Positions 7,219 through 54,738 of a stretch of DNA of 64,000 nt are shown here, one piece after another. The stretch's first letter is position 1. The number at the start of each line of letters is the position of its first letter. A program made the position numbers and the translations under genes. The notes under the pieces are model-generated. The model saw only the letters and a program-made list of their open reading frames with translations. It ran no database searches and was not told where the DNA came from. Source of the stretch: Candidatus Omnitrophota bacterium (lineage in GTDB: Bacteria > Omnitrophota > Gorgyraeia > Gygaellales > Profunditerraquicolaceae); NCBI GenBank assembly GCA_041661605.1, contig JBAZUE010000002.1, forward strand, positions 40,010 to 104,009, written 5' to 3'.

Positions 7219-7223
7219 AGATT

Positions 7224-7576: not shown

Positions 7577-7916
7577 TTTGGATCTCCTTGGTATTATCCC
7601 CCTATTTCTATAAAAACAGCTCGAGGGAGTCCGCTAAATTTCTTCAGCAGTTTTCCTGATTTTTGTGAATTGTAACACACATTCATTCCGTGGTCAAGTT
7701 TTTTATTGACGTTCCAGGATATTACTGTATAATAACTCACGTTTATCTTTTCTACTTGCAAGGTTTTTGAACTCTGTTATAATGTTTATGTTTTTGCCTA
7801 AACCTATAAGCTTATTTTATCCACAGATTTATGCAAGTTGTGCATAAACTGTTAATTCTGTTGATCAGGGAGTTGACTTTTTATAAGTAATTCGGTTTTT
7901 CTAAAACGAGAAAAGC
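7577..7916. promoter_or_regulatory. putative oriC / divergent promoter region between rpmH and dnaA
   Basis: Perfect DnaA box TTATCCACA at 7817-7825; inverted near-box TGTGCATAA at 7839-7847; 2-mismatch box TTATCCCCC at 7594-7602; AT-rich; gene strand bias switches here. Confidence 0.55.
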
Positions 7917-9254: not shown

Positions 9255-9398
9255 TCCCAAGGTTGTTGGACAAAATATTTTATTCTAACTTACTATAAAT
9301 ATATCGGGTTATATAGTTTTTAACAGAAACATAACCCCTTTAATACTACAACGATATTAAGTTTTTAAATATATATATAAATAGAAGGAGATTGAAGA

Positions 9399-10490: not shown

Positions 10491-10493
10491 TAG

Positions 10494-13225
<2,732 letters not shown>

Positions 13226-13226
13226 C

Positions 13227-16482: not shown

Positions 16483-16487
16483 AATCT

Positions 16488-16562
16488 GACCCTGTCGTCT
16501 AGCCTGGTCCAGGACAAGAGCTTTTCAAGCTCTCGACACGGGTTCAAATCCCGTCAGGGTCA
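16488..16562 (+). tRNA. tRNA-Glu (anticodon UUC)
   Basis: Acceptor GACCCUG/CAGGGUC, anticodon loop UUUUCAA, T-loop UUCAAAU; 75 nt, 5 nt after the gyrA stop. Confidence 0.8.
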
Positions 16563-19193: not shown

Positions 19194-19354
19194 CCGCAAG
19201 AAAGCGCTTTCCTAAAACTCCCAAAATGCCCTTGTAAGCACTTACCTATAATATATACTTTTTCTAACAAGGCTGATAAATGCCCTCTATATATTGACCT
19301 CGGAGGGCATCCTGCGAGGCCCTGATAACGGCGCAGCGGGACCTTAAGAATAAA

Positions 19355-22300
19355 ATGAAGACAAAATCATCAAGAAGTTTTAAAATCATTGCTATTATTA
19401 TATCCTTTTTACTTGTTTTTGAGCAATCCGGGTTTGCTCAGGTTGCCGGAGAGCTGGATATTTCAAGGCACTTCTTTGCTCTGCAAAATAGCTTCTCCCA
19501 GGAAAGATTCCGCCCACTGCACTTAAGATACCTTGCCTATGATCCGGGAGCCAATAACTTCAATCTGCTTTTAGATAAAGGAGATTTTGTGAAGGGGCTG
19601 TCTCCAAAGGGGGCCGTTCCCGAACAGGAGCTCAAGAATCAAACTAAGGAACTTTTAAATTATTTTTTTATCGGTATATCCCTGCCCAACGAATCGTTCT
19701 GGGTAAATTTAAGGCCAGATGCAGAAGATAATATTATAGATAGTGAATTGGCTGAAACGGATGTAGGAAAGATTCTTTTAGAAGCAGACCTGCAGCTTAA
19801 AAAAGATACAGCCAATTTTACCTCTCCTCAGGCTCCAGAAGGAAAAGACTACTGGGATAAGCTCTACAAGAAGGCAGAAGAGCTATATGGGGATGAAAAC
19901 ATAACTATACCCACGCTAACCCGGCCTTGGATTGTGCCGGATGAAATCATTATCAGAGAGAGCTCTGACAATGCCTATATCTACAAAGCAACGCTCAAAG
20001 TTATGCTTGAGCAGGATTACCTTAAGAATTCATCTACATATAGTTTTCAGGATCAGCGATCCAAAACCTTGAATGAATACTCATCTCAGCTCATCAGAGA
20101 AACTATTATCCCCAAGTTAACCAAAGAAATAAATTCTTCCAAAAGATACGCTCCTTTAAGGCAGGTTTATTACTCGCTTATCCTCGCGCAATGGTTTAAG
20201 CAGAAATTCTATGGCAAATCAGGCTTATATTCTTATCTCATAGACAGGCATAAGCTGGATGGTTTAACTTCTGAAACTCCTTGGTCTAAAACAACTTATT
20301 TTAACTCTTACAGGACTTCTTTTCAGCAGGGAGAATATAATATTAAGGAGCCGCGTTACACTCCCTATGGCCAGACTATCAGGAGTTATATGAGCGGGGG
20401 GTTGGATTTAGGGCAAATAGTATCTTCTGCGATTATACAAGGAGTTGTGCAGGGCAATAAAGATTATGGACCCGGGTCGTTAATTTCTAAACATGGATTA
20501 GGCTTCCATTTTTCAGGTGGCACTGTAAGTAATCCTTTTGGGCTGAAAGTAGATGTAGTTTTGCCTATCGATACAGATATACCAAGAGCGATTGGACAGC
20601 TACCTGTTGTTGGCTCTCCGCTTTCCGGTAATAGCCCTTTATTACAAAAGCAGGCTTCTTCTAGATCGTTGATTTCAAAAAATAATGAAACTAATTTTTT
20701 ATCCCGCGCCTTGAAAAATTTAAGCGCGCTAGCAGGGGCAGTGTTTGTATCCGGAGGCAGATTTAAAAGAGGCACGTTAGAGCGTATACTTAACGGCCAA
20801 GGAATTAATCTTAAAATCGATGTTTCAATCGGGGATATCGCGGATGATTTTATGGAACTGTCTGCTTTTACTGTATTTTTAATTCCCAAAAAAATACTAA
20901 AGGAGTGTGTGAGTAGTTTGGAATTTGGCGCAAATCCTTCAGGCGCTTACACAGATGCTGATGAACCGGGTTTGTACTCCAATGAAGACAAAAGAGTTTA
21001 TATATATCAACGGTCATTCGCTTTCTGGGATGCTTACTTGTTGGCAAGGATAATTTTACATGAGGTAGGCCATGGATTCGAGGGCGGTTTTTCCGAAGAA
21101 GACGCGGGTAAGATAAAAGCGGCGTATTCACTTATCAGGCAGAAAATTTCAAATGGCTATAAGGATTATTCCCTGTATCTTAAACATGATGACAATATTT
21201 TAAGCCTAGATAACAGGAAGGCAATTGTAACATATACCGATAAGCCGGACTCGTCGCAATTTATAGCCGAGTTTTTTAGGGAGTATATTTTAAACGGTGA
21301 GGAATTAAGGGATAAGATAGGAAGCCAGAAAGACAGCGAAGTTAAAGAGGCTTTGGCCACAATCTATAGTATTTATAAGAAACGGTTCAATAGGGAATAT
21401 TATCCAAGAGACGTAAAAAGCCTGCGAGGCATACTGGAGAGAATCCCAGAGACAGTTGGAAAGCATATCGCCAGAGATTATAAGCAATTTAGCGAATTTA
21501 GGGGAGTCGCGGGAATCTTTTATTTGCGCTACGGCTTAACGCTAGATGAATATAGCGCATTGGCTGAAAAAGAAGGGCAGGATGTTGCCCTCGAGTCTCT
21601 TTATAAAACAATAGTTAGCGGTCTTGCGAGTAAAACACAGGTTGAGTTTGAGCAATGGAAACTAAAATTGGCAGCGACCAAACAGGCGCTATATGACAAA
21701 CTTATTTCAGTGCTTCATGATTATGCGCAGGCAATTACGAGTATGCACAGCGGTGATATTGATGATGCGGGATTGCAAAGTATATTACAAGATTTTAGGC
21801 GAGTGTTATTAGAAATTAAAACTCAATCTAGCCCAAAGAGTAATGAATATATTCTCGCTACTGAATACGCGCCCATTGTGTTTAACGTATCGCTTTCCGC
21901 ACTAAGCCAAGAATCGCGCTTGCCATCTCTTGATGATATTTTATCAAAACAGTATCAATCTGCTGGGTCTTCGCTGGAAAGGGGGTTTCGGGATTTACTC
22001 GGTGATTATTATTGGCAAGAGCTGGAACGCCTACAGGTTCAAGGATTTAATGCAAATGACCTTAACGTATCCCTGATGTCTTCGGATAAAGAATCCGCCG
22101 AAACAATTATCAAAGTATTTAGAAAACTGGACATTAATGCGGTATTCCATGCGATAAAAAATGACCCTAAAAGTTTTAATCTTTTGCTTAGAAAGATGTT
22201 GGGCTCAGACAAATTTATTCAATATTTAAAAAACACGCTGGAGTCTTTAGATAGAGACAAGTATATCCTTAATAATGCAGAGCGCTTTAACCAATACATG

Positions 22301-25300: not shown

Positions 25301-28300
25301 CCTCTTTTTAATAAGCTGGACCAAAACTCGGTCCCAGAAGAATTCCCGATTGTTTCTGTCGTTGACAACGGATTACAATTGCCGGATTCTGATAAATTAT
25401 GCCTTCAGGATAAAACAACCGCCAGCCGATTAAAAAAAGAAGGCATAGAGTTTCTTTCCGGGGAATTGCTGGGCAGTAATATGTTCCTTAAGACTCTTAA
25501 GGCAGAGTGTGCTAAAGAGGATTCAGATTTGAAAAGATTCTTAAAACAGCATTTTGTATATGCTATGTCCCCGTCTTTGCTTTGGCAAGGAGAAACAAAT
25601 AATTCGTCGATAAAATATGTCCAGGAGATGCTGGGGGATAATATTATAAAGAAGTATCCGCAGACAGCCAAAGCTTTTATCCCGCTGATACAAAGTTTAT
25701 TCCAAAAATTGCCCGCCCGCCAAGGCATTAATTTCTTTGAAAGCGTGACAGGAGGGACGAGCTGCGGGAATACGCGCAGGGCTTTAAGCGGAACCGTTCC
25801 TTTATCTAAAATGCTCGTTTACGTTTATCAATTGAATTCAGCCATGGAGGGGGTTTATTTAAAAACAAATAAAAATCCTGAAGCGCTGGGGGCATTTATA
25901 GATTTAGGGTTTGACCCGCCGTTATATAGCTCTGTTGAGGCAATCAGTTACGCGCTTGAGCTTTTACTCGCGCAGTGGAAGAATGTCGGTTTGAAAGAGG
26001 GCGCCTCAATGTTTTTTGAGCTGGGCCTAAGGCAGGCATTAGAAAGGACATCTGATTCGCCTTATAGGCAATATATATTCCGTTTCGCTGCCCTTAAAGA
26101 AAGTAATTGGTTCGCGCGGATAACGGATGATTTTTCATCCATCGATAATAATTTAACGAGTGAAGAATGGTTTGGTTTTGCAGCGCGCGAAAAAGAATTT
26201 TCTGAATTTATCGATATACTGGCCGGGAATGGTTATAAATTCTCGCGGTTTGACGCAAGAGAATTATTAATGTTGAGCAGCAAAGAAGGGATGAAGGATT
26301 TTGTCGCAGATTTGATTTCATACGGTTATAGGTTTAAAAAAGAACACATTACTGCCTTGTTAGAGATGTTTGGCCGCCGGGAAGAAATTATTAATAAGGT
26401 AAAAGAGATTAAGACAGCTTGTCCCGAATTTACGTATTATATTTTTGATGACGCGACTAGGCTGTCTTATGAGCCAATTAATGTCCTAGCGGATTTTTTA
26501 AAGCGCAATCGCCGCGCGGCGGTTAATATGGTAAACAATCTCGAAACCGCTCTTACGTATATGAATCCTGAAGCCCTTCTTCAAGCGGAAAAAATCAGGG
26601 AAGTTTGCAAGGCTTTCAATTCCCCTGCTTTTCTCATAAGCAGCTTTCTTAGCGGCTCGCTTAACGGCCTGTTGTCAAAATTCACGGGAGAGGATGATTT
26701 TATGCGTTTTGCATTAACCGCGGATGTTATCGAAAAAAACTTTAAAAAAGCATTCATCGCGTTCTTAAGCGGTTATAAGCAAGGCACTCAAAGTCAATTT
26801 GACATATTGATGGAAATATTCCTTTCCAGTATTAGTGATGTGGAGCGGTCTTCAAAGATTGCCGACATCATTGGAAACTGGTTTTCCGCCGCGGATACAA
26901 CCTTTTCTTTGCCCAGGGATATTAATGCAGCAATGCAAAGTATCTCCTCCGGAAATATGGATAATCGTAACCCAGTGCATGTATTTGCCAGTTATTTGGC
27001 CATAAGCAAGGCATTACAGCAAGAGGGAATGCAGCGCGGCGTTACTTATAAAGACGTTTTAGGATTGGCTGAGAAGCGGGCCAATAGAAAAGAGGGATTT
27101 GAGGGCATCCCGCAAGAGCATATGCGTAATATAGAAGGGGTGGTATATGAAGCGGTTATCATCCGGAATAAGCTTTTGGAAATAGAGCGCGCCGGAAAAA
27201 AGCAAATAGTGGTTGCCAATTTGTCTTACGGAGGAGTGGCGGTTACGCCAATCACCGAACAGAAAAACGGCCAGGCGCATATTGTGGGTACGCAAATCCC
27301 TGTATGGTATACAAAAGTCGGCTCTACCGAGGCGCACAACAATGAATACGTGCTGGTTTACGATTTATTCACTCCGGAGCAAATAAAGGTTTTGATTGAA
27401 GAAAAACCGTTTGTCTCGGTGGTTGACGGGAGTACTTCTGTAGCTGATTCCGACAGGAGTTCTCCGCACATACCTGATGCTTTTAAGGGATACCGTAATT
27501 ATTTTATTGTTTTAAACTTCGCGCTGAGTGAATCATTTAACCCGAAGGATTTTGATGTAAATGAAGAATTCGTTAAGAGTTTACTGGCTACTGATGAGGC
27601 CAAGGAACTTATCCGTAAGATACGGTCTATAGCTGTTAAACCGCGTGTGCCCAACGCGTATAAATTCGGGTTTTCTTATGAGCGCAAAGCGGATTCGGAA
27701 AAAGAAGAGTTTTTATATTTGCGGGAGGGGAAAAAAGAAGCTGCTAAAGCAACTAAATTAAATGTAGATGAAATTATAAAGCAACAAAACCCCTTCTGTA
27801 TTTTCATACAGTCCTGTATTCATCCTAATGACGTTGACAAAAAGTTGATGCCCGAAGAATACAGGGCAGGGTATTATGATGATAGAGGCCACTTTAAAGA
27901 ATTCTACCTTGATTATAAAGACGGTTACGGCGTTGTGATTTCCAGGCGTTACGCTGACGCGGCAAGGGAATTCTTCATGCAATTCATGTCGCGAGATGAA
28001 GCTGACTCCGCCGGTTCGTCGGTTGAGCAAAACAAGGAAAGCGGTATTGATTTATCCAGAAGGAAAGGAATATTAATTTCATTAGCCACTGTTTTGACTC
28101 TAAAGATATTAGGGCCGTCAAAGGCGTTGGCAGAACTCCTGGGTTCTGATGAAATATATTATTTGCACTTAGCGAACAGCGAACCTAAAAATGCCGTATT
28201 AGACTTTAAAAAATATAAGGCGCAGCCTTTTGCAAAAAATGTTTTGAAAGCGGCCATAAATAAAAATGCGGATGTGGTATTAGAGCACGCGGAGGTTTTT

Positions 28301-34300: not shown

Positions 34301-37300
34301 AAAAAGCAAATAGTAGTCGCAAATTTGTCTTACGGAGGGGTAGCGGTTACCCCAATCACCGAAGAGAGAAGCGGTAAGGCTTATGTGGTGGGTACTCAGA
34401 TACCGGTTTGGCATACGAAAGTCGGCTCTACTCCCGCGCACAATAATGAATACGTACTGGTTAATGATTTATTCACTCCAGAACAAATAAAGTATTTGGC
34501 CGAAGAAATGCCGTTTGTTTCGGTGGTAGACGGCAGCACTTCCATAGCCGCATCCGACAGGAGCTCTCCGCACATACCCGATGCTTTTAAAGGATACCGT
34601 AACTATTTTATCGTTTTAAACCACGCGCTGGGTGAATCATTTGACCCGAAAGATTTCGACGTTGATGAGGAATTCGTGAAAGGCTTGCTGGCCACCGTTG
34701 AAGCCCAGGAACTTATTAAAAAGATACAGGCTATGTCAATCAAACCGCGTGCCCCTAACGCTTATAAATTCGGTTTTTCTTATGAGCGTAAAGCGGATTC
34801 CCAAAAAGGGGAATTTTTGTATCTGCGCGTGGGTAAAAAAGAAGCTACTGAAGCAAAAAAGCTGAATATCGGTGAAGCTCTAAAACAAGATAATCCTTTC
34901 TGTATGTTCCTTCAATCCTGCGTTCACCCTGATGACGTTGACAAAAAGTTGATGCCCGAAGAATACAAAGCGGGCTATTATGATGATACGAACCACTTTA
35001 AAGAATTCTACCTTGATTATGAAGACGGTTACGGAGTCGTGCTTTCCAAGCGTTACGCCTATGCGGCAAGAGAGCTATTCAGGAGATTTATGCTGCAAAA
35101 AGGAATTAATGTTATGTCCGGCCGTTTTACTACTGATGCCATTCGCCCGATTGATACATTGGTTCTGGACTTAGACGGCACGCTTACCGAAGCCATTGGA
35201 GGGAATATAGAAAACGGGACGGCCGATATTATTAATTATCTATTAAAAAAAGGCGTAAGGATAATTATCATTACTGATGATATTTTGGAGAATGTTGAAA
35301 AAAGAATCGCAAAATTGGACAAATCCGCTAACCTGGTTGTTCTTACCGATGGTGGGGCAAGAGGAGATGAAGGAATGTTTGAGCAATACAACGCACAAAA
35401 TATAATAAGCCCTGATTTAAGAAGCAGGGTCTTAGGTATAGCTCAGGCGAATTTCCCATTCGGCTCGTGGAAAGAAGGAAAGAAAGACTCTCTTTACCGG
35501 ATTCAAATCACGGATATCCAGGAGAGAACCGATTTTATCAAGCGTTTTCAGGATTTACTTGTTCAGGAAGGTATTGAGGCTAAAGTATATAAAGTTGGCA
35601 GGAATTCGGCGCGCGTTACCATTGCGCACAAAGAAGCGGCCTTCGCCGAAGCAATAAAAATGTTTGGTATTGATGTGTCTAAATCGCTGATTATCGCGGA
35701 TTCAGCCCGGTCTTACCGTATTGACCGTAAACTTTTGACTGCTTTTCCGGAAAGCGTAAGCGTTAATATAGGTAAATTCTCCCCTAGTATCGAGAGCGAG
35801 AATCAGAGAATTATTCAATATGCCGGGCAAGGTACAAGCGCAACAAAAATGCTGCTATCGAGTATAGCGTTTAGGGGCGGGCTGCCGCAGCATCTACTGC
35901 TTTCTTCTATGCAAAACCAGCCTTTGGAATATATGGAGGCCGCCAGTTCGCTTACTCAAAGCGCTTCACTAAGTCTATCCAATCTTTTTGAACCGCGGCA
36001 GCTGTCTTCCGCTGGTTCGGCGCTGGAGGAGGTAAATCTTCAAAAGATCTCGGCGGCGCTGGGGAAAATGGAAAAACAGGCTGTTGACGAAAAAGAAATA
36101 TACGGTTTAGCCGCGAGGTTGAAGGAAGCGTTTAAATGGGATGATTACTTCGGGAATTTTACCCCTGAGATGTGGATTGAGCTTTTGCGTTGTAAGGGAG
36201 TTAAAGAATTAAAGGGCTTAGATATAAAGGATGGAATACTAATAAAACAGGGTGATACCGTAAATGACGAACAGGCAATGTTCCTTATTGAAAAAGGAGG
36301 GGTGAGGGTTAGCGAAGATGCGCATGGAATTTGGATCGCGGATTTAGAGGAAGGGAATTATGTCGGAGAAATAGGCGCGGGCTCTTCAAATAGGCTGCGT
36401 ACAGCCACAGTGCGGATAAAAGAGGGGGCGCCGGAAACGAAATTTTTGGCAATACCTATGAGTGTATTTAGTGCCTTGGGGCTATCCAGGGTATTTTCGG
36501 AAATAAGCAGGCAACGCAGCAACCGTCTGAAAAGCAGAGAGAGATTAGCCGAGAAGGATTACACTCGTATATTGAAAAAATATCCGGATACAGAGTATGA
36601 TGAAGATAGCCCTGTAACAAAAGCTTATAACCTGGCATTAAAAATTATCAATCCAAAAGAAAACCCATTATCCGTGGACGTTACTTACCATAATCCTTAC
36701 CATTGGAATGAGTTGCTTGATTTTATCGATATTGTCCTACAGGGTATGGGGGATAATCTAAAGAATAAAAATAGGAAAATTATATTTATGTTGGCAAGGG
36801 TTGCGGCATATTTGCACGACATAGGGTATTATTTATCTAATGACCAAGGGAAGTTTACCGTTGTTGGACACGAAGACAGAAGCAAGGAATTTGTGCGTAA
36901 CAATATGAAAGAGTTAGGGCTTAGCAGCCGCTATGTCAATGCAATTCAGTTTATGATAGAGCATACTAAGCTTAAAATAGGAGAGGAGTTTGAAAATAAA
37001 TTGGGTTTAATAAACCAGGCGTTAGCGGAAATACACAATGGTAAATTATCTGATAAAACAGGGGTTTTTCTTAAAGAAATTTTGCCTGATTTAGACTTGA
37101 ATCTGGATAGTGATCTTGATTTTGCTAACGATGTTTTAATCGCTGCTAAGGCTCTTGCCGTAGCAGACCTGTATGCGGCAACCGTTGATATGGTTCCGTT
37201 TTTGTGGCTTGAATTTACTTTGGAAGGTTCTCCGGCAGGCAAGACGACTATGTTAGAACAAATAGCGGCCTCCCGCGATTTTCATAAAGGCGTTGTTGAA

Positions 37301-40300
37301 CCGCAACGGTTAAAATTGCTTTTAGAGGGAGGTTTCGGGTTAGAAAAGTTAATAATGGATAGTGGCTCGTTAGAGCGGTTAAAGAACGCCAGAGAGAAAA
37401 ATATCGGTATAATGCAGCAGTATGCCGAAGCGGTAAAACAGATAAAGGCAAGTGATACTGCCGAATCAGTTAAAAAAACAGCTGAAACGAATTTAATAAA
37501 TCTTATTAACGGCCTTAATGATGATATGGTTGGTCCGCTTAAAGATGAGTTGCTGGCTGAAGTAAAAACACTTGTTTTAAAAAGCAGCGCTGTTGGCGCG
37601 GGGTCGGCTTTACAAAATCCGGAAACAGGATTAATCGGCAGTAAAACACTTGGAAATTATAAATTTGTTCTGCAAGGCCAGGGCAAAGAAGGATACTTGT
37701 TAAAAATTTTTGGCAAAAGGGGTGTCGCAGGAGAAATAAAATTTAGATTACATGATCTTCCCGATGGCAGAAAAGGAATCTTTGTAGAAAATGTATTTGC
37801 TAACGATACTTATCGCGAAGATTTTAGGAAAGATTTTGAAAAAGGGATATATTCAAATATGCTAAAAGAGATTATAGAAATAGGGGAACAGTATTCCCGT
37901 GATATAAACAAAGTAACCGAAATAACCGGAGCGATAAATAATATAGAGACTCTGCAGGGTCTTTATGGCGCTATTGCCGGCAGTCGTCCAACAGAAGAGC
38001 GAGAAGAGGTTGAAAGGCTAAGTGGTATAGAGAAAAAGAATTATTATGAACATACAGAACCGCTGATTAAGATGTTAAAGAAAGCCATAATTGAAGAGGT
38101 GGGTAGCGAAGAAGGCAGGATGGAGCTTGATAGGAAACTTCCGGATACCCTTTTAGTAAAAGCCAGGTCAGGTGGGGGGTTCTCGGAAAATCACCGTATG
38201 CGGGTAGAGAGAGATCAGATAATCCTTATATCTAACACGCCGGTTCATTCCGCAGGCTCTTCGCTTGAGATGCGTCCAGAAGAAGCCGCTAAATTAATAA
38301 GGGAAGCGGTGCAGGAAAACTATGAAAAATGGGGCCTTTTATCCGAGCGTTTAAAAACAGCAAGGCGTATTTTGGTCCGGGTTCCCGGACGCGATAACCG
38401 TGGCGGCCACGAATTCCCATTAGGGGAGATAGCTGCTACTCTGCCCATATTAATCAAAACGCTGATTATTTCTGGAGAAAGCATCGAAAAGATAATAGTG
38501 CAATGTGATTCTTATCCGGAATTGGTAGAAGCGCTAGGAGAAAATAGGGTCAAATTAGCTGAGCCTAGTAAGACAACCGACGAATTAAGGTCTATTTATT
38601 CCCCGGATTTGGTTATTGATTTTGACACGGTAGCATTGGGTGAGGAGATTCCGGAAAACACAGTAAAGTTCCCAGTGGCAAAATTATGGATGTCTTTAGA
38701 TCGTCATAGGGAAATGCGTGAAATTTTAACTTCAGCAGGATTAAGCATTCCTAAAGAAGGCGAAGCAATTATCAGGAGAGAAAGGGAAAGGGATGGGCAG
38801 ACGACCATATTTGTAAATCCGCATAGTGATAGCAATAAGAATGATAATGTAGATTTGTGGGTAGGGTTAATACAGGAACTTGTTGCAAGGGGGTATAAAG
38901 TAGTACTTAATTCGGGTAAAGAGGCAGGAAAAGACCAGGCACATTCAAAAAATATATTAGAGAAGCTTAGAGAAGAAGTGAGATTGGGGGATGTGAAAGA
39001 ATTTAAAGGGAGTATTACGGATCTTTTAAATACCTTCTCAAAGAAAATAGACGGAGTAGTAACTATAGATAGCGGCATATTCCACGTAGTGCACAATTTG
39101 TATTCCTTACCTGCAGTCGTTTTTACTACGTCGAACACATTAGGTTGGATTCCGCAGGAAAAGGAGGAGTTATTATTTAAGAGGGTTCAATACTCAGATT
39201 TGAAAGATTCTTCTACTGCAGTAGAGTTATTGCGGAGTTTATTAGAGAGAGAAGAAAAAGCAGACGCCAGCTCGCCGGCTGCGCCGGGAGATTCTGTTGT
39301 GCCTCAAGATTCGACTTCGAACCTTAACGTAGTATTATTGTCGAAAATCGAAGATCATATGAGAACGGAATTAAAAAAAATAGATGATGCGATTGATAGG
39401 GAGATAGAGGGCATGCCCTTTGATGATAAACCGCACCGATTGTCCGACAAAATAATGGAACGTTACCGCCTCTTGTTTATCGAATTTTGCGAAATTGGCC
39501 GTGGCATACCGGAATTTGATCACCTATCATATTTAATGCAGGACGGAAAGTTTACTCCGGCAATGGCTATGAACGCATTGCAGGGATTATTCTTAAAAGA
39601 AAACAGGCTTTTGGTATTTTCTATTGGAAGAGATCCTGTTGATGGAAGAATTATAGAAAATATGCCCGCGCTTTCAGTGTTTAAGGTAAAAGAAACGCAA
39701 CTAGTTACAGAAGATATTATAGATAAGCATGTAGATGCATTGGCAATATTTGTTGATGGCTTGATTGTGCAAGATTACGTCACAAGGCGCCGTATGGGAT
39801 TTGAATCTTATCTAGCATTTGCCATACATGGGGTGACCATCGATGGAGCAATACCAGTTGTAGTAAATAAGGGAAGTATTGCTGCTGAACTTAAGCGTTA
39901 CTACGGAATGCGTTTAGAAATGGAAGCTACGGGTCAGCTTCCGGATTTCTATAGAAAGAATATTCCGCTTCTCAATGAGGCGTTGGCAAAACTTTTGATA
40001 AAACAGTGGCCTCAACCAAACAAAGATATCTCCGATTTTATTGCGAAGCATTTGGACGAATATATACGTAGAATTGTATTGCATGAATTAACGCATGTGC
40101 GTATAGCAGGCACGGATGATGATGAAATATTCGCGTATCTTGTTGAGATCGCGCAGACGCCTTATAGCTGGTTAAGGCTATTTGATGTCGTTTATAGTAT
40201 TAGTCCTCCAGTTAGAAGCACGTCGATCGAGCATGATTATGCCTCAAATAATTTTCTGCGTAACTTTATTCAGGGTATTTTCCAAAAGTACGAACCTGGT

Positions 40301-41530
40301 TCGTTAAAGGGTATTCCTGAGGATCGGCATCGTGCTGCGGCAACCAAATTACCTGATACTTATCCTGCAGGACTATTCATGGCGATCTCTGATATTCCTG
40401 AAGAAGTGCTTAAAGCAGAGGCGAAAACAAAATTTTTGGAATTAAAAGAAAAATCATCGAGTTCCATTATTTCTGCGGATAAACCTGCCAGTTCGGAGAT
40501 ACAATTAGATAACACTTATGATGGACTTTTTAATCGTCTTAAAAACATAAATGGAGGGGAGAAAGAAGTAAATTTAGGATTTTCAAAGGATACAGCCAGG
40601 AGGCTCAAAATAAGAATAACTGGGTGGATGAATGGATTAAAAACGAGGAAGAAAGAATTTGATCTGTTCGCTGCTAATAATCAAGCGTTGAGTGAAGAAA
40701 AATCCCGAAAATTAAATAAATTTATAAGCGGAATCGCTAATTATGTAAAAACAAGACGCAGCCTTGTGAGTCCGCAGGAGCCTCTAGCTGTTGCTGAAAA
40801 GATATTGTTTACTACGGTTGGATATGGGTATCCTTATGCGGAAATCGATATAACAAGCTTGCCTTCAGCCGTGAAATTTTCTACTACAATATTGGCCAAG
40901 AGCTATGATGATAAATTTAGAGAAATAATAGATGAAGCGATGGATAGAATTCAGAGGATACTTAAGGTTTTAGACAAATTGGCAGAAGAGAAATTGGCAG
41001 AAGAAAAAGATATAGACTTGGTTCTTAGCGGAAGAAGTGGACAGGAGACTGTGGTAGTCAGAGAAGAAACGATACGAAGGATTTACAATGAAATATCAGG
41101 AGCTTCCAGCTCTCTAGTAGAGGATGGAAAAGGTGGCATAGACATGCGTTCTTTGTCGCAATATACGGTTATCCAGCCAATGACGGGATCAAACTTTTCC
41201 AAGCAGGGGCACTCCTTTTCGGGAACGGCCCCTCTTCCTGATAAAGAATGGCAGGAGATAGAAAGGATGGCGAATTCAGGAATAGCTCCTTCCTCTGAGC
41301 GATTAAGAGAATACCTTTTGTCTTTGCAGGATCCAAGCAGCCAGACAGATAAAGTCCTTGCCTGTATTGCGGATATCTTAAGACAGGAGGAAGAAAAAGC
41401 CTGCTGCACGGAGTCTTCTTTAAAGGAGATTCTGGCTTTGCTTGAATCAGGCAAGCCGGATAAAGAATTAAGGCTGGCATTAACAAAAATACAGGTTTTA
41501 GCTAAAGAGCCGCAATTGATAGAGCAATAA
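19355..41530 (+). CDS. giant multidomain protein, 7,391 aa, with a signal-peptide-like N-terminus (see findings)
   Basis: Uninterrupted 22,176-nt reading frame. N-terminal segment MKTKSSRSFKIIAIIISFLLVFEQSGFAQVAG. Internal motifs HEVGH, DLDGT, GEIG..RTATV, HD, a GT9-like fold and HELTH. Confidence 0.85.
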   Translation: MKTKSSRSFKIIAIIISFLLVFEQSGFAQVAGELDISRHFFALQNSFSQERFRPLHLRYLAYDPGANNFNLLLDKGDFVKGLSPKGAVPEQELKNQTKELLNYFFIGISLPNESFWVNLRPDAEDNIIDSELAETDVGKILLEADLQLKKDTANFTSPQAPEGKDYWDKLYKKAEELYGDENITIPTLTRPWIVPDEIIIRESSDNAYIYKATLKVMLEQDYLKNSSTYSFQDQRSKTLNEYSSQLIRETIIPKLTKEINSSKRYAPLRQVYYSLILAQWFKQKFYGKSGLYSYLIDRHKLDGLTSETPWSKTTYFNSYRTSFQQGEYNIKEPRYTPYGQTIRSYMSGGLDLGQIVSSAIIQGVVQGNKDYGPGSLISKHGLGFHFSGGTVSNPFGLKVDVVLPIDTDIPRAIGQLPVVGSPLSGNSPLLQKQASSRSLISKNNETNFLSRALKNLSALAGAVFVSGGRFKRGTLERILNGQGINLKIDVSIGDIADDFMELSAFTVFLIPKKILKECVSSLEFGANPSGAYTDADEPGLYSNEDKRVYIYQRSFAFWDAYLLARIILHEVGHGFEGGFSEEDAGKIKAAYSLIRQKISNGYKDYSLYLKHDDNILSLDNRKAIVTYTDKPDSSQFIAEFFREYILNGEELRDKIGSQKDSEVKEALATIYSIYKKRFNREYYPRDVKSLRGILERIPETVGKHIARDYKQFSEFRGVAGIFYLRYGLTLDEYSALAEKEGQDVALESLYKTIVSGLASKTQVEFEQWKLKLAATKQALYDKLISVLHDYAQAITSMHSGDIDDAGLQSILQDFRRVLLEIKTQSSPKSNEYILATEYAPIVFNVSLSALSQESRLPSLDDILSKQYQSAGSSLERGFRDLLGDYYWQELERLQVQGFNANDLNVSLMSSDKESAETIIKVFRKLDINAVFHAIKNDPKSFNLLLRKMLGSDKFIQYLKNTLESLDRDKYILNNAERFNQYMGIFDMFFPHDATLLQRIKFWFNKIQRLVNNWIRMLEKLAIANGNIAPLNLLWEYAQKADYKTQLEAVRKIRDLQGQFIKVYESGYRESEGSIVAQVSRKYFITLTSSLGIIEQMKANQEWLEKFNLAEIDKALSLIRKNFLGVIIDLVATGKKSANPMFILNRMELFKDVASLARNLEVLKKLQKDPKIEDETFLYLSFLPFEDLNKIIQRASLIFKDAGIVMRLNVSILDWLLKLNEDGFDNLTRNVDALSAGNEMFLLTLGSSDLEFLLNLEYEEAKTMGSIISRLGYGFGYNYFELVSNMLKNAKNSPGQKEEILSITAEDIQRWQDHNQEDFYQLNKIYRSLATSDNTVNLIVTVIKKKDISIIVPFETLESFGLYRQEMEPFNKFMNTSARYENKREIAVLFARWVSIISTADASFTESAMPAIKSAFEEYFNSDRRDKYAALRNSLEAVLEATIRKLLEEVTGEAIPQEKISRLEEGGRLQKIITVVSLYYSIIAKNEQSEADKKQMQERVTEILKKFISEEAAESDVEQWIIGSIEENRKAMDALLAAGYDKRLWEEGVRVEGEIRRGLGEEEKKAQINKQAQEIIDRAKKMGLPVKNIKIESYEDARDVFKTILDSKENIINSGRASNEDFEGHVNRIRDILGKIKDISGKYLNGRSEKAEIVIKKDFFAESLSGNNSYSGCFKAFAGFHQEMPLKHALEVNTAIGIVYIGGKPVANVVLALTDKGVVVYGDYKEDYDLGPLWAEAWKELAKLSPAVILGGNSAGRKASEKSGKIRNIFSFKAIKTATLWEHVSSDLGRTDENGDVYYIIQPALILTSRSIARSGSDKNDNSGKANLVIPKNQLSENEQEQQRVSPTDKFNKDRGRIVREIMANPELNELNLKPLLSNFERVIFDFDEQETEELAASLNSRLDAKRKITETEKSALTQKLAEIKRKYNSPSASSPIKAGESAGSAAEAFSSGLAVKDELIASVRGNSWRPVLPADSFAAKFIPLFNKLDQNSVPEEFPIVSVVDNGLQLPDSDKLCLQDKTTASRLKKEGIEFLSGELLGSNMFLKTLKAECAKEDSDLKRFLKQHFVYAMSPSLLWQGETNNSSIKYVQEMLGDNIIKKYPQTAKAFIPLIQSLFQKLPARQGINFFESVTGGTSCGNTRRALSGTVPLSKMLVYVYQLNSAMEGVYLKTNKNPEALGAFIDLGFDPPLYSSVEAISYALELLLAQWKNVGLKEGASMFFELGLRQALERTSDSPYRQYIFRFAALKESNWFARITDDFSSIDNNLTSEEWFGFAAREKEFSEFIDILAGNGYKFSRFDARELLMLSSKEGMKDFVADLISYGYRFKKEHITALLEMFGRREEIINKVKEIKTACPEFTYYIFDDATRLSYEPINVLADFLKRNRRAAVNMVNNLETALTYMNPEALLQAEKIREVCKAFNSPAFLISSFLSGSLNGLLSKFTGEDDFMRFALTADVIEKNFKKAFIAFLSGYKQGTQSQFDILMEIFLSSISDVERSSKIADIIGNWFSAADTTFSLPRDINAAMQSISSGNMDNRNPVHVFASYLAISKALQQEGMQRGVTYKDVLGLAEKRANRKEGFEGIPQEHMRNIEGVVYEAVIIRNKLLEIERAGKKQIVVANLSYGGVAVTPITEQKNGQAHIVGTQIPVWYTKVGSTEAHNNEYVLVYDLFTPEQIKVLIEEKPFVSVVDGSTSVADSDRSSPHIPDAFKGYRNYFIVLNFALSESFNPKDFDVNEEFVKSLLATDEAKELIRKIRSIAVKPRVPNAYKFGFSYERKADSEKEEFLYLREGKKEAAKATKLNVDEIIKQQNPFCIFIQSCIHPNDVDKKLMPEEYRAGYYDDRGHFKEFYLDYKDGYGVVISRRYADAAREFFMQFMSRDEADSAGSSVEQNKESGIDLSRRKGILISLATVLTLKILGPSKALAELLGSDEIYYLHLANSEPKNAVLDFKKYKAQPFAKNVLKAAINKNADVVLEHAEVFINETYAQELFELATQTWPQSILRHAYQIIKQPYAQGIIEIAASKYPTGALEYSFNYAKQPYAQKIIETAAKSEPVAALKFAKAYIEESYAKGILEQAAKKNYLATLEYSRNYFRKEYMRPIIEQCARKSAWGALRFASGYLNMPGARQLIEAAAELSPDTALRYSFEYMEAPYAKDIIIKSALQDPAAAIINTGGVGWVLEEKRKDIPEIDIILRIAASEYRGKQERIGALLDMIMNDIATGTEAGRAMYKANKISENDNEFFKELMKIKTNKSSRGVASVDRFLKRLSSILIRDMNDMHDLTAERRFSALSDYDASMLYTMIVYGEDEVYTSTFNGIFNILIKKMKGNNISGEKLLEMVGKNKFRVFIKLTAAFKRLNEFWDILEAKNKKDELIKEFVQGLAGIRIDNERLSQAIAVADTFSVINGGYQQVILREAIEEYKKMETAGNKEGVRIYGILISIFGRQLSIEEPWFQQMYQNYPVPDLTAIDGSQLFDPNGAQANTQVHFFYHDPYGKNSFANFKKLFNKNEIKESPDKSFIVIARQRADKKIIIYANNPYTDAVKGQMQIDKALKERGIEPQVVVHRGHSFHLSDTIERITAKAKIVFLGACGGYNYIVDVLERAPLAHIISTKGTGKNDVNNPLLDMLNNELLSGKGIQWEGFWGKAKKRLGNTKDFLDYVPPHRNLGVLFLKTYYNVAENVSKTIPQPRNQSFLREIIDGLTMEAILPITVFNMAINKIADRSPMDRREFFGLGKKTSQSGSADSSISREVMAGSSLRNPLPAAPASELQEGQENQNGMDRRTFLGALGGLAGLTFLLGLSDSGNAAGMPQENVQPEESAQKAVDWDKARGFIIDKLAEKYPEKKQAQDIKVAFGEYEKDKSKAYRQINKLLNSMAKEMDKEQRIGLNSNGWYTVYFIYIDGLYEEFGHKILFPFGRRFAFLDSKNNQGTRKVMEQVLEEEAATVKKVIGTLFGGLSLLGAGKFVYDKIIKPFFSRRFTRTLMDELRTINNVVFKDDGIEAGIEVYTQSVKIVMNTSAESVKIYRLQNSQEKITHDQRDSHRYYTNYGWQIERAIEDYILDKHDKDMLLSFMPVKLRDNEYYGYITNKLKLESLLKGIVKIISDFREYEYRDLAEIIALLQKEERVNQQLLINWLMAAQKQGRSLRSALDKLQELLKLLQGESSEAVAAGISLLIKHPYLRVSYLRVWLEDAAARGQDKAKLVGDLNNYYTITRALLRAGNYENEIAGMIQSVLTDNIEIRRHSLLSWLKAVKLHGKDAKMFLSELKKLALINKRFIEELETRRPRSGYGYEYKWFEDTLLSQSGKLLLALGGIYDSGYLNKLLPLYTGGYLSKSLGEKGYIYLERISSILEENINLIDSGSLLELKKREIGSNDRLQSLILAKVSVDPSFIQSITDNIKKEENPQVNNNLLRLLFSLEGADEAIHDILMNINPEEIARKTINNEYNWQWNLLELWPENEKSIARIMKKYPELLSKVFAIAKPLVSTYEDRPPYYKRHFPLIISAALSNSRELSVSADEFRDLFKILNNWRYRPECLGAISYAVLNNPSLFRELLTEDHIFDADYLLGVKIIPIELRMKLQRQFLESFKDAFRELRPEESSRMLAGMIKNIVIYGRVEAKDLDLLAVFPERQAVANTVFFCRELRKIGYDFNKYDYFTFGDFRFIHELAQQPDITAFLRKLRSYGFVFQDAYWGYHSNDRIGILSDIFNKREEYFSKIEAIRSVLPDFKYQPLLEGLSPESVLASLLERYPSQAVSMMNDPEGVLKAINPEAAPYAKKIREICTVFNFPVFLVSGFISGSLNNLLPGLTTPDDFIYSVFIENSVEQEFKDKFTAFLSGYTNGTQGQFNMLIQAFRSGLNGSRQSSQVAEVIGGWFCSAYTVFSLPKDISMAMQNISSGNMDNSDPVYVLANYLAISKALQREGMQRSVTYKDVLSLIEKRAGGSGAFEDIPEEHMRNIEGLVYEAVIIWNKLLETERAGKKQIVVANLSYGGVAVTPITEERSGKAYVVGTQIPVWHTKVGSTPAHNNEYVLVNDLFTPEQIKYLAEEMPFVSVVDGSTSIAASDRSSPHIPDAFKGYRNYFIVLNHALGESFDPKDFDVDEEFVKGLLATVEAQELIKKIQAMSIKPRAPNAYKFGFSYERKADSQKGEFLYLRVGKKEATEAKKLNIGEALKQDNPFCMFLQSCVHPDDVDKKLMPEEYKAGYYDDTNHFKEFYLDYEDGYGVVLSKRYAYAARELFRRFMLQKGINVMSGRFTTDAIRPIDTLVLDLDGTLTEAIGGNIENGTADIINYLLKKGVRIIIITDDILENVEKRIAKLDKSANLVVLTDGGARGDEGMFEQYNAQNIISPDLRSRVLGIAQANFPFGSWKEGKKDSLYRIQITDIQERTDFIKRFQDLLVQEGIEAKVYKVGRNSARVTIAHKEAAFAEAIKMFGIDVSKSLIIADSARSYRIDRKLLTAFPESVSVNIGKFSPSIESENQRIIQYAGQGTSATKMLLSSIAFRGGLPQHLLLSSMQNQPLEYMEAASSLTQSASLSLSNLFEPRQLSSAGSALEEVNLQKISAALGKMEKQAVDEKEIYGLAARLKEAFKWDDYFGNFTPEMWIELLRCKGVKELKGLDIKDGILIKQGDTVNDEQAMFLIEKGGVRVSEDAHGIWIADLEEGNYVGEIGAGSSNRLRTATVRIKEGAPETKFLAIPMSVFSALGLSRVFSEISRQRSNRLKSRERLAEKDYTRILKKYPDTEYDEDSPVTKAYNLALKIINPKENPLSVDVTYHNPYHWNELLDFIDIVLQGMGDNLKNKNRKIIFMLARVAAYLHDIGYYLSNDQGKFTVVGHEDRSKEFVRNNMKELGLSSRYVNAIQFMIEHTKLKIGEEFENKLGLINQALAEIHNGKLSDKTGVFLKEILPDLDLNLDSDLDFANDVLIAAKALAVADLYAATVDMVPFLWLEFTLEGSPAGKTTMLEQIAASRDFHKGVVEPQRLKLLLEGGFGLEKLIMDSGSLERLKNAREKNIGIMQQYAEAVKQIKASDTAESVKKTAETNLINLINGLNDDMVGPLKDELLAEVKTLVLKSSAVGAGSALQNPETGLIGSKTLGNYKFVLQGQGKEGYLLKIFGKRGVAGEIKFRLHDLPDGRKGIFVENVFANDTYREDFRKDFEKGIYSNMLKEIIEIGEQYSRDINKVTEITGAINNIETLQGLYGAIAGSRPTEEREEVERLSGIEKKNYYEHTEPLIKMLKKAIIEEVGSEEGRMELDRKLPDTLLVKARSGGGFSENHRMRVERDQIILISNTPVHSAGSSLEMRPEEAAKLIREAVQENYEKWGLLSERLKTARRILVRVPGRDNRGGHEFPLGEIAATLPILIKTLIISGESIEKIIVQCDSYPELVEALGENRVKLAEPSKTTDELRSIYSPDLVIDFDTVALGEEIPENTVKFPVAKLWMSLDRHREMREILTSAGLSIPKEGEAIIRRERERDGQTTIFVNPHSDSNKNDNVDLWVGLIQELVARGYKVVLNSGKEAGKDQAHSKNILEKLREEVRLGDVKEFKGSITDLLNTFSKKIDGVVTIDSGIFHVVHNLYSLPAVVFTTSNTLGWIPQEKEELLFKRVQYSDLKDSSTAVELLRSLLEREEKADASSPAAPGDSVVPQDSTSNLNVVLLSKIEDHMRTELKKIDDAIDREIEGMPFDDKPHRLSDKIMERYRLLFIEFCEIGRGIPEFDHLSYLMQDGKFTPAMAMNALQGLFLKENRLLVFSIGRDPVDGRIIENMPALSVFKVKETQLVTEDIIDKHVDALAIFVDGLIVQDYVTRRRMGFESYLAFAIHGVTIDGAIPVVVNKGSIAAELKRYYGMRLEMEATGQLPDFYRKNIPLLNEALAKLLIKQWPQPNKDISDFIAKHLDEYIRRIVLHELTHVRIAGTDDDEIFAYLVEIAQTPYSWLRLFDVVYSISPPVRSTSIEHDYASNNFLRNFIQGIFQKYEPGSLKGIPEDRHRAAATKLPDTYPAGLFMAISDIPEEVLKAEAKTKFLELKEKSSSSIISADKPASSEIQLDNTYDGLFNRLKNINGGEKEVNLGFSKDTARRLKIRITGWMNGLKTRKKEFDLFAANNQALSEEKSRKLNKFISGIANYVKTRRSLVSPQEPLAVAEKILFTTVGYGYPYAEIDITSLPSAVKFSTTILAKSYDDKFREIIDEAMDRIQRILKVLDKLAEEKLAEEKDIDLVLSGRSGQETVVVREETIRRIYNEISGASSSLVEDGKGGIDMRSLSQYTVIQPMTGSNFSKQGHSFSGTAPLPDKEWQEIERMANSGIAPSSERLREYLLSLQDPSSQTDKVLACIADILRQEEEKACCTESSLKEILALLESGKPDKELRLALTKIQVLAKEPQLIEQ
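26475..27985 (+). repeat. copy 1 of a roughly 1.5-kb intragenic direct repeat (about 500-aa module) within the giant gene
   Basis: The encoded segment PINVLADFL...YGVVISRRYADAAREFF is about 75-80% identical, over about 500 aa, to the copy at 33580-35090. Shared motifs: GGVAVTPITE, SSPHIPDAFKGYRNYFIVLN, NPFC.F.QSC.HP.DVDKKLMPEEY. Confidence 0.85.
33580..35090 (+). repeat. copy 2 of the roughly 1.5-kb intragenic direct repeat
   Basis: Same as copy 1. The look-alike antisense ORFs 27059..27337 and 34169..34441 are by-products of this duplication. Confidence 0.85.
35147..35855 (+). other. HAD-superfamily (Cof-like) phosphatase module inside the giant protein
   Basis: Motif I LVLDLDGTLTE (DLDGT at nt 35168-35182); later ...VVLTDGGARG and ...IIADSARS. 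Confidence 0.6.
36140..36470 (+). other. cyclic-nucleotide-binding-like module inside the giant protein
   Basis: GILIKQGD...MFLIEKGGVRV...YVGEIGAGSSNRLRTATVRIKEG fits the cNMP-binding beta-roll signature G.E.G..........R.ATV.A. Confidence 0.55.
36660..37000 (+). other. HD-domain phosphohydrolase-like module inside the giant protein
   Basis: H..YHWNELLDF...ARVAAYLHDIGYY...GHEDRSKEF (HD dipeptide at nt 36815-36820). Confidence 0.55.
38340..39180 (+). other. GT9 (ADP-heptose:LPS heptosyltransferase-like) glycosyltransferase module inside the giant protein
   Basis: N-lobe RRILVRVPGRDNRGGHEFPLGEIAATLPIL...IIVQCDSYPELVEAL. C-lobe IFVNPHSDSNKND.VDLWVGLIQELVARGYKVVLNSG...GSITDLLNTFSKKIDGVVTIDSGIFHVVHNLYSLPAVVFTT; compare the GT9 consensus ...GKTSL.EL.ALI..A.L.VGNDSGPMHLAAAL..P.VALFG.T. 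Confidence 0.6.
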
Positions 41531-41624
41531 GAGGGGCGCTTACCTTCCCAAAAGGTTTATCAGCCAGAAAGAAGGTTCCCTAATAAGCGTCCCTTTTTAT
41601 TTGTGCTAGCACGGAGAAATAGCC

Positions 41625-41653
41625 TTGACAAAGCGCCTTTGAAGTGCTATATT
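41625..41653 (+). promoter_or_regulatory. sigma70-like promoter of the pyrR-pyrB-pyrC operon
   Basis: TTGACA (41625-41630), 17-nt spacer, TATATT (41648-41653). Confidence 0.6.
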
Positions 41654-41738
41654 TATATAACTAAATTAACCTTTAAGCTGGCTCTTGAGAAGCTGGCAAG
41701 GCAGATAAAATGAAGAATAAAGTTATGGAAAATATGAA

Positions 41739-41770
41739 CCCTTGGTAGAAAGACCAAGGGTATTTTTTTT
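41739..41770 (+). terminator. leader attenuator (intrinsic-terminator hairpin plus U-tract) 20 nt upstream of the pyrR start codon
   Basis: CCCTTGG-tagaaaga-CCAAGGG followed by TATTTTTTTT. An upstream segment GAGAAGCUGGCAAGG (41687-41701) resembles the PyrR-binding loop consensus and could alternatively pair with the 5' arm of the terminator. Confidence 0.55.
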
Positions 41771-52992: not shown

Positions 52993-52993
52993 T

Positions 52994-54736: not shown

Positions 54737-54738
54737 AG

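Follow-up and report, generated by a model that had tools for sequence, protein, structure and literature searches.

The 64,000-nt stretch of DNA analysed here (hereafter the window; positions 40,010 to 104,009 of contig JBAZUE010000002.1 from the Candidatus Omnitrophota bacterium assembly GCA_041661605.1) contains, between rsmI and pyrR and on the same strand as both, one open reading frame (ORF) of 22,176 nt. It extends on the forward strand from an ATG start at 19355 to 41530 and encodes 7,391 amino acids (aa) followed by a stop codon, with zero internal stops. This giant gene is the longest retrieved member of a very large family of Omnitrophota proteins in which two conserved ends flank a fast-changing string of enzymes. 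The ends are a conserved N-terminal domain (NTD), placed behind a predicted Sec-type signal peptide, and a conserved C-terminal domain (CTD); the modules between them are called cargo in the following. The two-ended family architecture appears to be undescribed; giant ORFs as such are already known from Omnitrophota.

The 22-kb gene is real. At the ~41% GC of the region, stops are expected at ~6% of codons, so that an open run of 7,391 codons cannot have arisen by chance. GC content and GC skew are the same as in the flanks, and the composition is uniform. The identical 7,391-aa protein has been deposited from a 113,887-bp contig as 'MAG: hypothetical protein WC731_05245 [Candidatus Omnitrophota bacterium]' (P0001), in agreement with the original prediction, made from the letters of the window only, of a single giant gene from an uncultivated lineage. 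From run SRR18595301, an independent Logan assembly yielded a contig with glmS, rsmI and the beginning of the giant gene. Over the 5,683 bp that were compared, including rsmI and the initial 2.8 kb of the giant gene, this contig is 100% identical to the window; its gene call reaches aa 2,215 of the giant protein. An orthologue of 6,811 aa (P0002, named 'HD domain-containing protein' by NCBI) is collinear with 87% identity over aa 1-875, 88% over aa 2886-3753 and 81% over aa 3753-7391, ~5,400 aa in total; together with the independent assembly it supports most of the length of the gene. That the gene is an artefact, be it a chimeric assembly, a read-through of several genes or a decaying pseudogene, is very improbable. 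The source is a metagenome-assembled genome (MAG) and the junctions at aa ~2426-2886 have no strictly collinear orthologue, but the frame is unbroken for 22 kb at 41% GC, both family-defining ends are present, and the independent assembly and P0002 agree with the window over the regions just given. Furthermore, long exact DNA repeats are absent from the gene; its repeats are limited to the diverged copies of an internal duplication and to a 15-nt micro-tandem, which leaves nothing to invite an assembly collapse. The parts of the giant protein are the following (a slash marks the presumed end of a signal-like segment).

19355..19438, forward strand: predicted Sec-type signal peptide (aa 1-28), read from the sequence as MKTKSSRSFK-IIAIIISFLLVF-EQSGFA/Q
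19439..20410, forward strand: conserved NTD (aa 29-352), ending in an invariant SGG motif
20411..21979, forward strand: module 1 (aa 353-875), with HEVGH at aa 569, ending at the linker SAGSSLE (aa 869); no family match
21980..25189, forward strand: module 2 (aa 876-1945), no recognisable family, ending at the linkers ASSPIK/SAGSAAE
26231..27988, forward strand: copy 1 of a duplicated module (aa 2293-2878), no PDB or Pfam match
28052..28141, forward strand: internal signal-peptide-like segment 1 (aa 2900-2929), SRRKGILISLATVLTLKILGPSKALA/E, conserved in P0002
28397..28894, forward strand: six copies of a 28-aa helical repeat (aa 3015-3180), regular-expression register 3015, 3043, 3071, 3099, 3127, 3155
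30053..30139, forward strand: motif pair HRGHS...GACGG (aa 3567-3595), conserved in P0002; no peptidase family or PDB match
30698..30799, forward strand: internal twin-arginine signal-like segment 2 (aa 3782-3815), MDRRTFLGALGGLAGLTFLLGLSDSGNAA/G, hydropathy peak 1.66
33305..35092, forward strand: copy 2 of the duplicated module (aa 4651-5246)
35159..35683, forward strand: HAD-type phosphatase-like module (Pfam match aa 5269-5443), with DLDGT at aa 5272
36239..36544, forward strand: cNMP-binding-like stretch (aa 5629-5730), weak match to a CRP model
36791..36985, forward strand: core of an HD phosphohydrolase domain (aa 5813-5877, PF01966), with LHDIGY at aa 5820
37613..38251, forward strand: module aa 6087-6299, no family, between the linkers GAGSALQ and SAGSSLE
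38267..39268, forward strand: GT9 (heptosyltransferase)-like module (aa 6305-6638), partial profile matches
39287..40456, forward strand: module aa 6645-7034, with HELTH at aa 6910 (conserved in P0002); no DUF4157 or peptidase match
40472..41104, forward strand: last cargo module (aa 7040-7250), no family
41117..41527, forward strand: conserved CTD (aa 7255-7391), consisting of a GGIDMRSL motif, a disordered spacer and a five-helix bundle

The family became visible through its ends. We collected 119 non-self homologues of 2,751-7,111 aa. Of these, 117 align solely to the first ~350-400 aa of the giant protein, at their own residues ~1-350 (50-82% identity); in at least 101 the extreme C-terminus aligns as well, to the final ~130 aa (30-75% identity). 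The intervening 6,800 aa have almost no matches among these homologues; the comparison with proteins of related MAGs, which had been suggested as a check, thus separates two conserved ends from a body that is almost not conserved. A profile of the N-terminal domain (alignment A1), searched against a library of 1.84 billion proteins, retrieved 7,740 cluster representatives (6,433 at E<=1e-30), with the match always at the N-terminus; the giant protein scores 608 bits against it. In a scan of GTDB species genomes, the profile found 421 loci, essentially all in Omnitrophota MAGs. Several genomes have two or three family loci among the best 80 loci, and the paralogues within a genome are mostly just 62-70% identical in the NTD. 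In one locus (L039), two NTD-family genes stand head to head on one contig (2065-3213, reverse strand, and 5688-6743, forward strand), a local clustering of paralogues. The length of complete members lies between 609 aa and 7,391 aa, with proteins of ~770-1,600 aa among them; the 609-aa member P0214 consists of NTD, a ~140-aa linker and CTD with zero cargo, and the giant protein is the longest among the 247 family sequences retrieved. It has both marks of the family, namely a signal peptide and the conserved NTD at its N-terminus, and the CTD with its GGIDxRxLP-type motif and helical bundle at the extreme C-terminus. An architecture that had been called unrecognised is therefore one of conserved NTD, variable cassettes and conserved CTD common to thousands of proteins.

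The NTD is recognised by the motifs FRPLHLRYL, FWVNLRPD, LEADLQLKKDTA, IPTLTRPWIVP, LRQVYYSLILAQWFK and the closing SGG, and its AlphaFold model is confident and of mixed alpha/beta type. The CTD starts with an invariant GG-I-D-x-R motif (GGIDMRSL at aa 7260 here, GGIDFRxLP in the consensus); in the AlphaFold model a disordered spacer comes next, and then a five-helix bundle modelled with confidence. The positions of SGG at the end of the NTD and GGxD at the start of the CTD are invariant and bracket the cargo. Across genomes the NTD is 60-86% identical, compared with 68-94% for rsmI, and is thus about as conserved as the neighbouring housekeeping genes. Among solved structures, the models of NTD and CTD have no relatives, the CTD giving generic helical matches only, and PDB sequence searches with the profiles of both domains gave no useful match. 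On the basis of the models, NTD and CTD appear to represent two new predicted folds.

The region between the ends is divided by short Ser-rich linkers. Motifs of the SAGSSLE or ASSPx type form 10 clusters in the giant protein (aa 869, 1931/1941, 2885, 3756, 5529/5552, 6082, 6299, 6638, 7034 and 7250), compared with 1.3 +/- 1.2 in shuffled sequence. All 11 homology boundaries with other members (seven clusters of 3' ends and four 5' starts) lie within 30 aa of a linker, a zone that makes up just 8.7% of the giant protein. Wherever the giant protein and P0002 differ, their alignment stops and starts exactly at linkers; collinearity breaks exactly at aa 875, the end of module 1, and high-scoring segment pairs between module 2 and other members end at aa 1924-1964. 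Family-wide, the most enriched k-mers in the middle regions are ASSPV, ASSPA and AGSPV, in other lineages QKDGG, and they recur every 150-400 aa. Judged by sequence, the linkers are module boundaries. As strict cleavage motifs they were set aside, because between orthologues they are conserved no better than their own flanks, and we treat them as junctions.

Several of the modules so delimited occur as units elsewhere in the family. The internal duplication noticed in the original prediction is real: aa 2293-2878 and 4651-5246 are 62.7% identical over 600 aa (75% over 1,476 nt at the DNA level), and this ~590-aa cassette is also present in six other members (P0003, P0004, P0005, P0008, P0010 and P0248). 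Module aa 6087-6299 is common as a unit to P0003 (q6076-6331, 52%) and to the member in L005 (q6102-6305, 45%), the GT9-like module to P0009 and P0003 at 78% (q6293-6643), while module aa 6645-7034 was also found in P0130 (q6661-7058, 41%).

A string of divergent enzyme-like modules had been read from the letters alone, and this general description stands with HD, HAD, GT9-like and cNMP-like modules. The motifs lie where they had been placed, namely HEVGH at aa 569 (nt 21059-21073), HRGHS/GACGG at aa 3567/3591, RREFF at aa 3730, RRTFL at aa 3784, DLDGT at aa 5272, LHDIGY at aa 5820 and HELTH at aa 6910, and all except RREFF were also found in P0002. More than two thirds of the chain, in which no motif had been recognised, is likewise without a family match. 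Where family names had been attached to the motifs, the profile searches gave different outcomes. The HD domain is well founded (PF01966, E=1.6e-5, 25.6 bits vs a Pfam cut-off of 22). For the HAD module, several models and the DLDGT motif agree (TIGR00099, E=3.9e-4; PDB 3dnp (YhaX), E=0.028), although PF08282 stays just under its cut-off (E=6.7e-4, 19.9 vs 20.9 bits). The cNMP-binding assignment has a single weak match, to the CRP model NF008732 (E=1.6e-4), which is far below the cut-off. The helical repeat that had been called HEAT-like is present, but its period is 28 aa and not 35 aa. The GT9-like fold, which had been described as complete, is a partial, sub-threshold match to the C-terminal half of the profiles only (PF01075, E=0.003, 16-17 vs 22 bits, profile positions 118-199 of 247; TIGR02193, E=1.6e-5, and TIGR02201, E=1.1e-4, both in the C-terminal profile part only); the length of the cassette is that of a full GT-B enzyme. 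The caspase-like assignment has no support from profile or PDB sequence searches: apart from the motifs themselves there was no caspase or clan-CD match in Pfam or NCBIfam at E<=1 and no PDB match. The DUF4157-like assignment near the C-terminus is likewise unsupported: PF13699 has no match at E<=1 and a bare HELTH motif remains. Both HExxH motifs of the giant protein are kept in P0002, yet neither lies in a match to a peptidase family. PDB sequence searches with the duplicated module, the 'caspase' region and two blocks of ~2,000 aa gave only a weak HAD match. PPR-like matches from the PDB searches were rejected as spurious sums over repeats, every individual stretch having E>10.

Family-wide, the cargo is dominated by enzymes that are normally cytoplasmic, such as glycolytic enzymes, SAM methyltransferases, HATPase and GNAT, and therefore fits poorly with the remodelling of cell envelopes (LPS or glycans) which, together with proteolysis under cyclic-nucleotide control, had been suggested as a possible task of the giant protein. 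Members P0061 (L003 10001-20803), P0053, P0056 and P0070 carry several glycolytic or pentose-phosphate enzymes fused between NTD and CTD, in this set GAPDH, PGK, TIM, enolase, transketolase and PGM; their NCBI names cite a single enzyme.

The position of the gene is also a recurrent one. Of the ~80 best loci, 27 have glmS-rsmI directly upstream as in the window, and L001 also has pyrR, pyrB, pyrC and a LOG-family gene downstream. Family members of very different length occupy this slot: ~1,450 aa in L008 (rsmI 90% identical), ~1,585 aa in L005, 3,814 aa in L001, 4,873 aa in L006 (P0009) and 7,391 aa in the window. The genome of P0009 is closely related to that of the window (glmS 91% and rsmI 94% identical), whereas the two proteins have in common only the NTD (77%), the GT9-like cassette (78%, q6293-6643) and the CTD (70%). 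Consequently, the cargo is replaced far faster than the surrounding genome diverges, and the ends persist. The GC skew changes sign at ~7-8 kb of the window, beside dnaA, which places the start of the giant gene ~12 kb from the probable replication origin, on the leading strand and co-directional with replication. Upstream of 78 family loci no conserved accessory gene was found, only the housekeeping genes glmS, rsmI and gyrA as well as antisense artefacts. In L001, six small genes without Pfam match (5497-9660, reverse strand) lie between rsmI and the member at the slot (P0008); they are absent from the window.

The N-terminus, noted early as signal-peptide-like, has the n/h/c layout of a signal peptide, with a positive n-region (net charge +2.7 over the first 15 residues), a 12-residue h-region and small residues at -3 and -1. 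Its EQxGFAQ motif is near-invariant across the family, and the AlphaFold2 model shows a helix at residues 7-26 followed by a disordered stretch. The short h-region would be too short for a membrane anchor. In a hydropathy scan of the giant protein, only aa 9-27 and 3786-3804 are transmembrane (TM)-like, with a weaker peak at aa 2905-2925; in 150 of the 208 complete members, no internal segment is strongly hydrophobic. The Cys content is 0.31%, compared with 0.83% in the housekeeping proteins of the window. Both internal segments of the giant protein resemble complete signal peptides, one at aa 2900 reading SRRKG-ILISLATVLTLKIL-GPSKALA/E and the other at aa 3782 reading M-DRRTFL-GALGGLAGLTFLLGL-SDSGNAA/G. 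Canonical [ST]RRxF[LMI] segments occur at cargo starts throughout the family (22 observed vs 1.2 expected from shuffling), a recurrence that would fit modules captured from exported proteins. P0140, P0151, P0156, P0160, P0163, P0209 and others have SRRxFLK, an Ala/Gly-rich stretch and AxA at aa ~390-700, often right after the NTD. For comparison, 94% of Omnitrophota proteins of at least 10 kAA (thousand aa) were predicted to have a signal peptide or TM helices (Nielsen & Lui 2026, bioRxiv 10.64898/2026.06.07.730766).

We propose that the giant protein is most likely a Sec-exported carrier displaying or delivering swappable enzyme cassettes, a reading which we adopt with modest confidence. A member of the family would be built from a Sec-type signal peptide, an NTD of ~330 aa, 0 to 10 or more cargo modules, mostly divergent enzymes connected by short Ser-rich linkers, and the CTD. 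The signal peptide would move the polypeptide through Sec across the cytoplasmic membrane, after which the constant NTD and CTD may supply the shared steps, that is recognition, anchoring, assembly or further translocation. The cargo would then be an interchangeable set of enzymes shown on, or delivered from, the surface of an ultra-small and probably host-dependent bacterium, and new versions may arise through gain, loss and duplication of cassettes at the linkers. Several points weigh against this proposal. We infer export of the giant protein solely from features of its sequence, and both internal signal-like segments are N-in, which does not give a simple alternating topology. Much of the cargo needs ATP, NAD, SAM, acetyl-CoA or nucleotide sugars and is normally cytoplasmic (GAPDH, PGK, TIM, enolase, methyltransferases, HATPase, GNAT and GGDEF in the family, the cNMP-binding-like and GT9-like modules here). 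Secretion systems, chaperones and processing proteases are found neither near the gene nor recurrently linked in relatives. Finally, neither NTD nor CTD has a structural or sequence relative that would point to its function. Cargo of a cytoplasmic type favours either the delivery of enzymes into another cell or a scaffold in the cytoplasm. A bolder form of our proposal, which we offer tentatively and consider unlikely, is that NTD and CTD mark an undescribed export and assembly architecture specific to Omnitrophota. The proteins would be carriers of polymorphic 'effector arrays' of episymbiotic or predatory nanobacteria, by which enzyme sets, in some members including complete stretches of glycolysis, are placed on or into a host cell. 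Linkers would be the places where cassettes are swapped, and double-glycine or internal signal-peptidase sites perhaps those where they are released; the system would be a functional analogue of MARTX and polymorphic toxins made from two new folds.

If the N-terminal helix served as a tether or were buried, the giant protein could instead be a scaffold for several enzymes, cytoplasmic or tethered to the membrane, whose enzyme string works inside the cell as a fused assembly for metabolism or signalling. The dominance of cytoplasm-type cargo argues for such a scaffold, with GAPDH, PGK, TIM and enolase fused in P0061, transketolase, hexokinase, methyltransferases, HATPase_c, GNAT and radical SAM in other members and the cNMP-binding-like, HD and GT9-like modules in the giant protein, and so does the lack of adjoining secretion machinery. 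It is, however, difficult to reconcile with an N-terminus that has the layout of a cleavable Sec signal, including the +2.7 charge and the short h-region, with the low Cys content and with the recurrent internal twin-arginine signal-like segments; moreover, Nielsen & Lui explicitly dropped an intracellular reading of their longest multi-enzyme protein after topology prediction. We regard the scaffold as a serious candidate but as improbable. Clearly unlikely, in our opinion, is a polyprotein precursor, compatible with export, that frees its enzymes through cuts at the double-glycine motifs SGG and GG-ID, at the AxA sites with which the internal signal-like segments end, or else at linkers. The invariant SGG and GGxD positions on either side of the cargo, the ends ALA/E and NAA/G of the internal segments and the nature of the modules as discrete evolutionary units would be in line with processing, as would the C39 double-glycine peptidase domains of other Omnitrophota giant proteins, for which cleavage has been proposed. 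On the other hand, a protease gene or domain was detected neither in the giant protein nor in the window, and the linkers, no better conserved than their flanks and lineage-specific (ASSPV, QKDGG, SAGSSLE), look like flexible linkers.

Hardly any credence is due to the idea that the giant protein belongs to a characterised family of giant toxins or adhesins, that is RTX/MARTX, Rhs, TpsA/CdiA two-partner secretion (TPS) or autotransporters. The resemblance lies in logic only: conserved ends, a variable middle and very large size. No RTX, Rhs, TPS (Haemagg_act), autotransporter or C80 match was obtained at E<=1 in any tile of the protein, in accordance with the expectation that it would not turn out to be a known family of the RTX/Rhs type; the folds of NTD and CTD match nothing solved, and there is no gene for a type I secretion system (T1SS), TpsB or RtxC nearby. 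As far as the analogy goes, MARTX and TpsA/CdiA are the closest analogues in logic, yet every testable defining feature is absent. MARTX toxins have conserved N- and C-terminal regions around a variable, recombining array of effector modules and a T1SS signal at the C-terminus. The giant protein likewise has conserved ends bracketing swappable enzyme modules, but it lacks RTX-type repeats (no HemolysinCabind match), Peptidase_C80 and T1SS or RtxC genes, and carries a predicted Sec signal instead. TpsA/CdiA exoproteins and the cargo proteins of the type IX secretion system (T9SS) are very large and exported, with a conserved terminal domain that carries recognition and with polymorphic cargo. 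Unlike TpsA/CdiA, the giant protein has no PF05860 match, an NTD of mixed alpha/beta type in place of the TPS beta-helix and no TpsB gene nearby; in contrast to T9SS cargo, its CTD is a helical bundle and not a beta-sandwich, and no T9SS genes were seen.

The giant protein can also be compared with what has been described for Omnitrophota. Giant ORFs of >20 kb are reported from most Omnitrophota classes (Seymour et al. 2023, PMC10066038); they were described as poorly conserved and poor in annotated domains, and are suspected to serve symbiosis or predation. The giant gene shares with them the phylum, a length above 20 kb (22,176 nt), the few annotated domains and the poorly conserved body; it differs in the strongly conserved ends of its family, of which we found no mention in the sections of that report consulted. 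Archaeovorins (West-Roberts et al. 2023, bioRxiv 10.1101/2023.11.21.568195) are proteins of >30,000 aa with numerous TM helices, SecA_DEAD and often C39, for which an action on prey was proposed. A highly divergent mix of glycosyltransferases, methyltransferases, peptidases and hydrolases on one Omnitrophota polypeptide is the common trait; of this domain mix the giant protein has the sub-threshold GT9-like module, HAD, HD and two HExxH motifs, with no methyltransferase, NUDIX or GH match. It departs from Archaeovorins in its length of 7,391 aa, in having no more than 2-3 hydrophobic segments and in lacking SecA and C39; SecA_DEAD, the SecA preprotein-binding domain and C39 or S8 peptidases gave no Pfam or NCBIfam match at E<=1 in any tile. 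A third described group is the class of 'multi-enzyme metabolic clusters', defined as proteins of at least 10 kAA with many distinct Pfams of which none is dominant (Nielsen & Lui 2026, bioRxiv 10.64898/2026.06.07.730766). This class has the same tiling with diverse enzymes, a similar content (HAD, HD, methyltransferase, HATPase, sugar metabolism) and mostly a predicted signal peptide or TM helices, but the catalogue begins at 10,000 aa, above the length of the giant protein, and conserved end domains, linkers and the rsmI slot are unmentioned in the text searched. In our sample the family tops out near 7.4 kAA, which may explain its absence from catalogues starting at 10 kAA. A further preprint interprets Omnitrophota giant proteins as effector batteries. 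In the parts of the literature on Omnitrophota giant proteins that were searched, neither the conserved ends nor the linkers nor the rsmI slot are described.

It is widely suspected that giant proteins of Omnitrophota take part in attachment to hosts or in predation, yet so far they have passed for poorly conserved and difficult to analyse. Each of the two end domains is short, strongly conserved and modelled with confidence; together they define a family with thousands of members, and both are small enough to be expressed and solved. With the NTD profile, members can be counted and classified in every genome; the defined junctions can be searched for in proteomics data, and the natural cargo swaps at the slot can be correlated with hosts or habitats. 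Should the ends turn out to be a new signal for export or delivery, access to the biology of an entire uncultivated phylum would become easier, and the signal could serve as a modular scaffold in protein engineering.

Upstream of the giant gene and on the same strand lie gyrB, a 278-aa ORF, gyrA, tRNA-Glu, glmS and rsmI, downstream pyrR, pyrB and pyrC, and the rest comprises parAB, yidC, dnaA, dnaN, further pyr genes and a V/A-type ATPase operon. As had been noted for the flanks, transport, chaperone and immunity genes are lacking, and neither these nor secretion or processing genes were found anywhere in the 64-kb window. The Rfam scan found tRNAs only. The replication-origin region (window 1-16500), which also holds gyrB and gyrA, and the signals next to the giant gene are as follows.

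3757-5450, reverse strand: parB/parA, replication-origin region
5689-7218, reverse strand: yidC, replication-origin region
7917-9254: dnaA, replication-origin region
9399-10490: dnaN, replication-origin region
19232..19259, forward strand: weak sigma-70-like promoter candidate in the spacer between rsmI and the giant gene (9/12 matches in a consensus scan)
41533..41600, forward strand: possible terminator read from the sequence, GGGGCGCTTA...TAAGCGTCCC followed by TTTTTATTT

The spacer holding the promoter candidate is 161 bp long. The possible terminator has a long loop and was not called by the terminator scan. Behind it, at 41625-41761 (forward strand), a strong sigma-70-like promoter (TTGACA-17-TATATT with TG, 11/12 matches) precedes a hairpin of 9 bp with a T-run (41738-41761); the hairpin overlaps the listed TTG start of the pyrR ORF. 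The arrangement looks like a pyr attenuator, and the true start of pyrR may thus lie further downstream.

The 278-aa ORF between gyrB and gyrA (13227-14063, forward strand) has no Pfam match; in the syntenic locus L001, gyrB and gyrA adjoin directly. Downstream of pyrC, a 412-aa ORF (44551-45789, forward strand) is likewise without Pfam match, and its counterpart in L001 has a weak MJ0043_C match only. At 46345-47913 (forward strand) lies a carB-like gene of just 522 aa, whose product comprises preATP-grasp, ATP-grasp and MGS domains; carA is missing beside it. In L001, the interval from the LOG-family gene to fpg contains both carA (362 aa) and a carB of full length (1,089 aa). In the V/A-type ATPase operon (51853-58890, forward strand), subunits E, A, B and D were recognised by Pfam, and the adjacent ORFs are presumed members.

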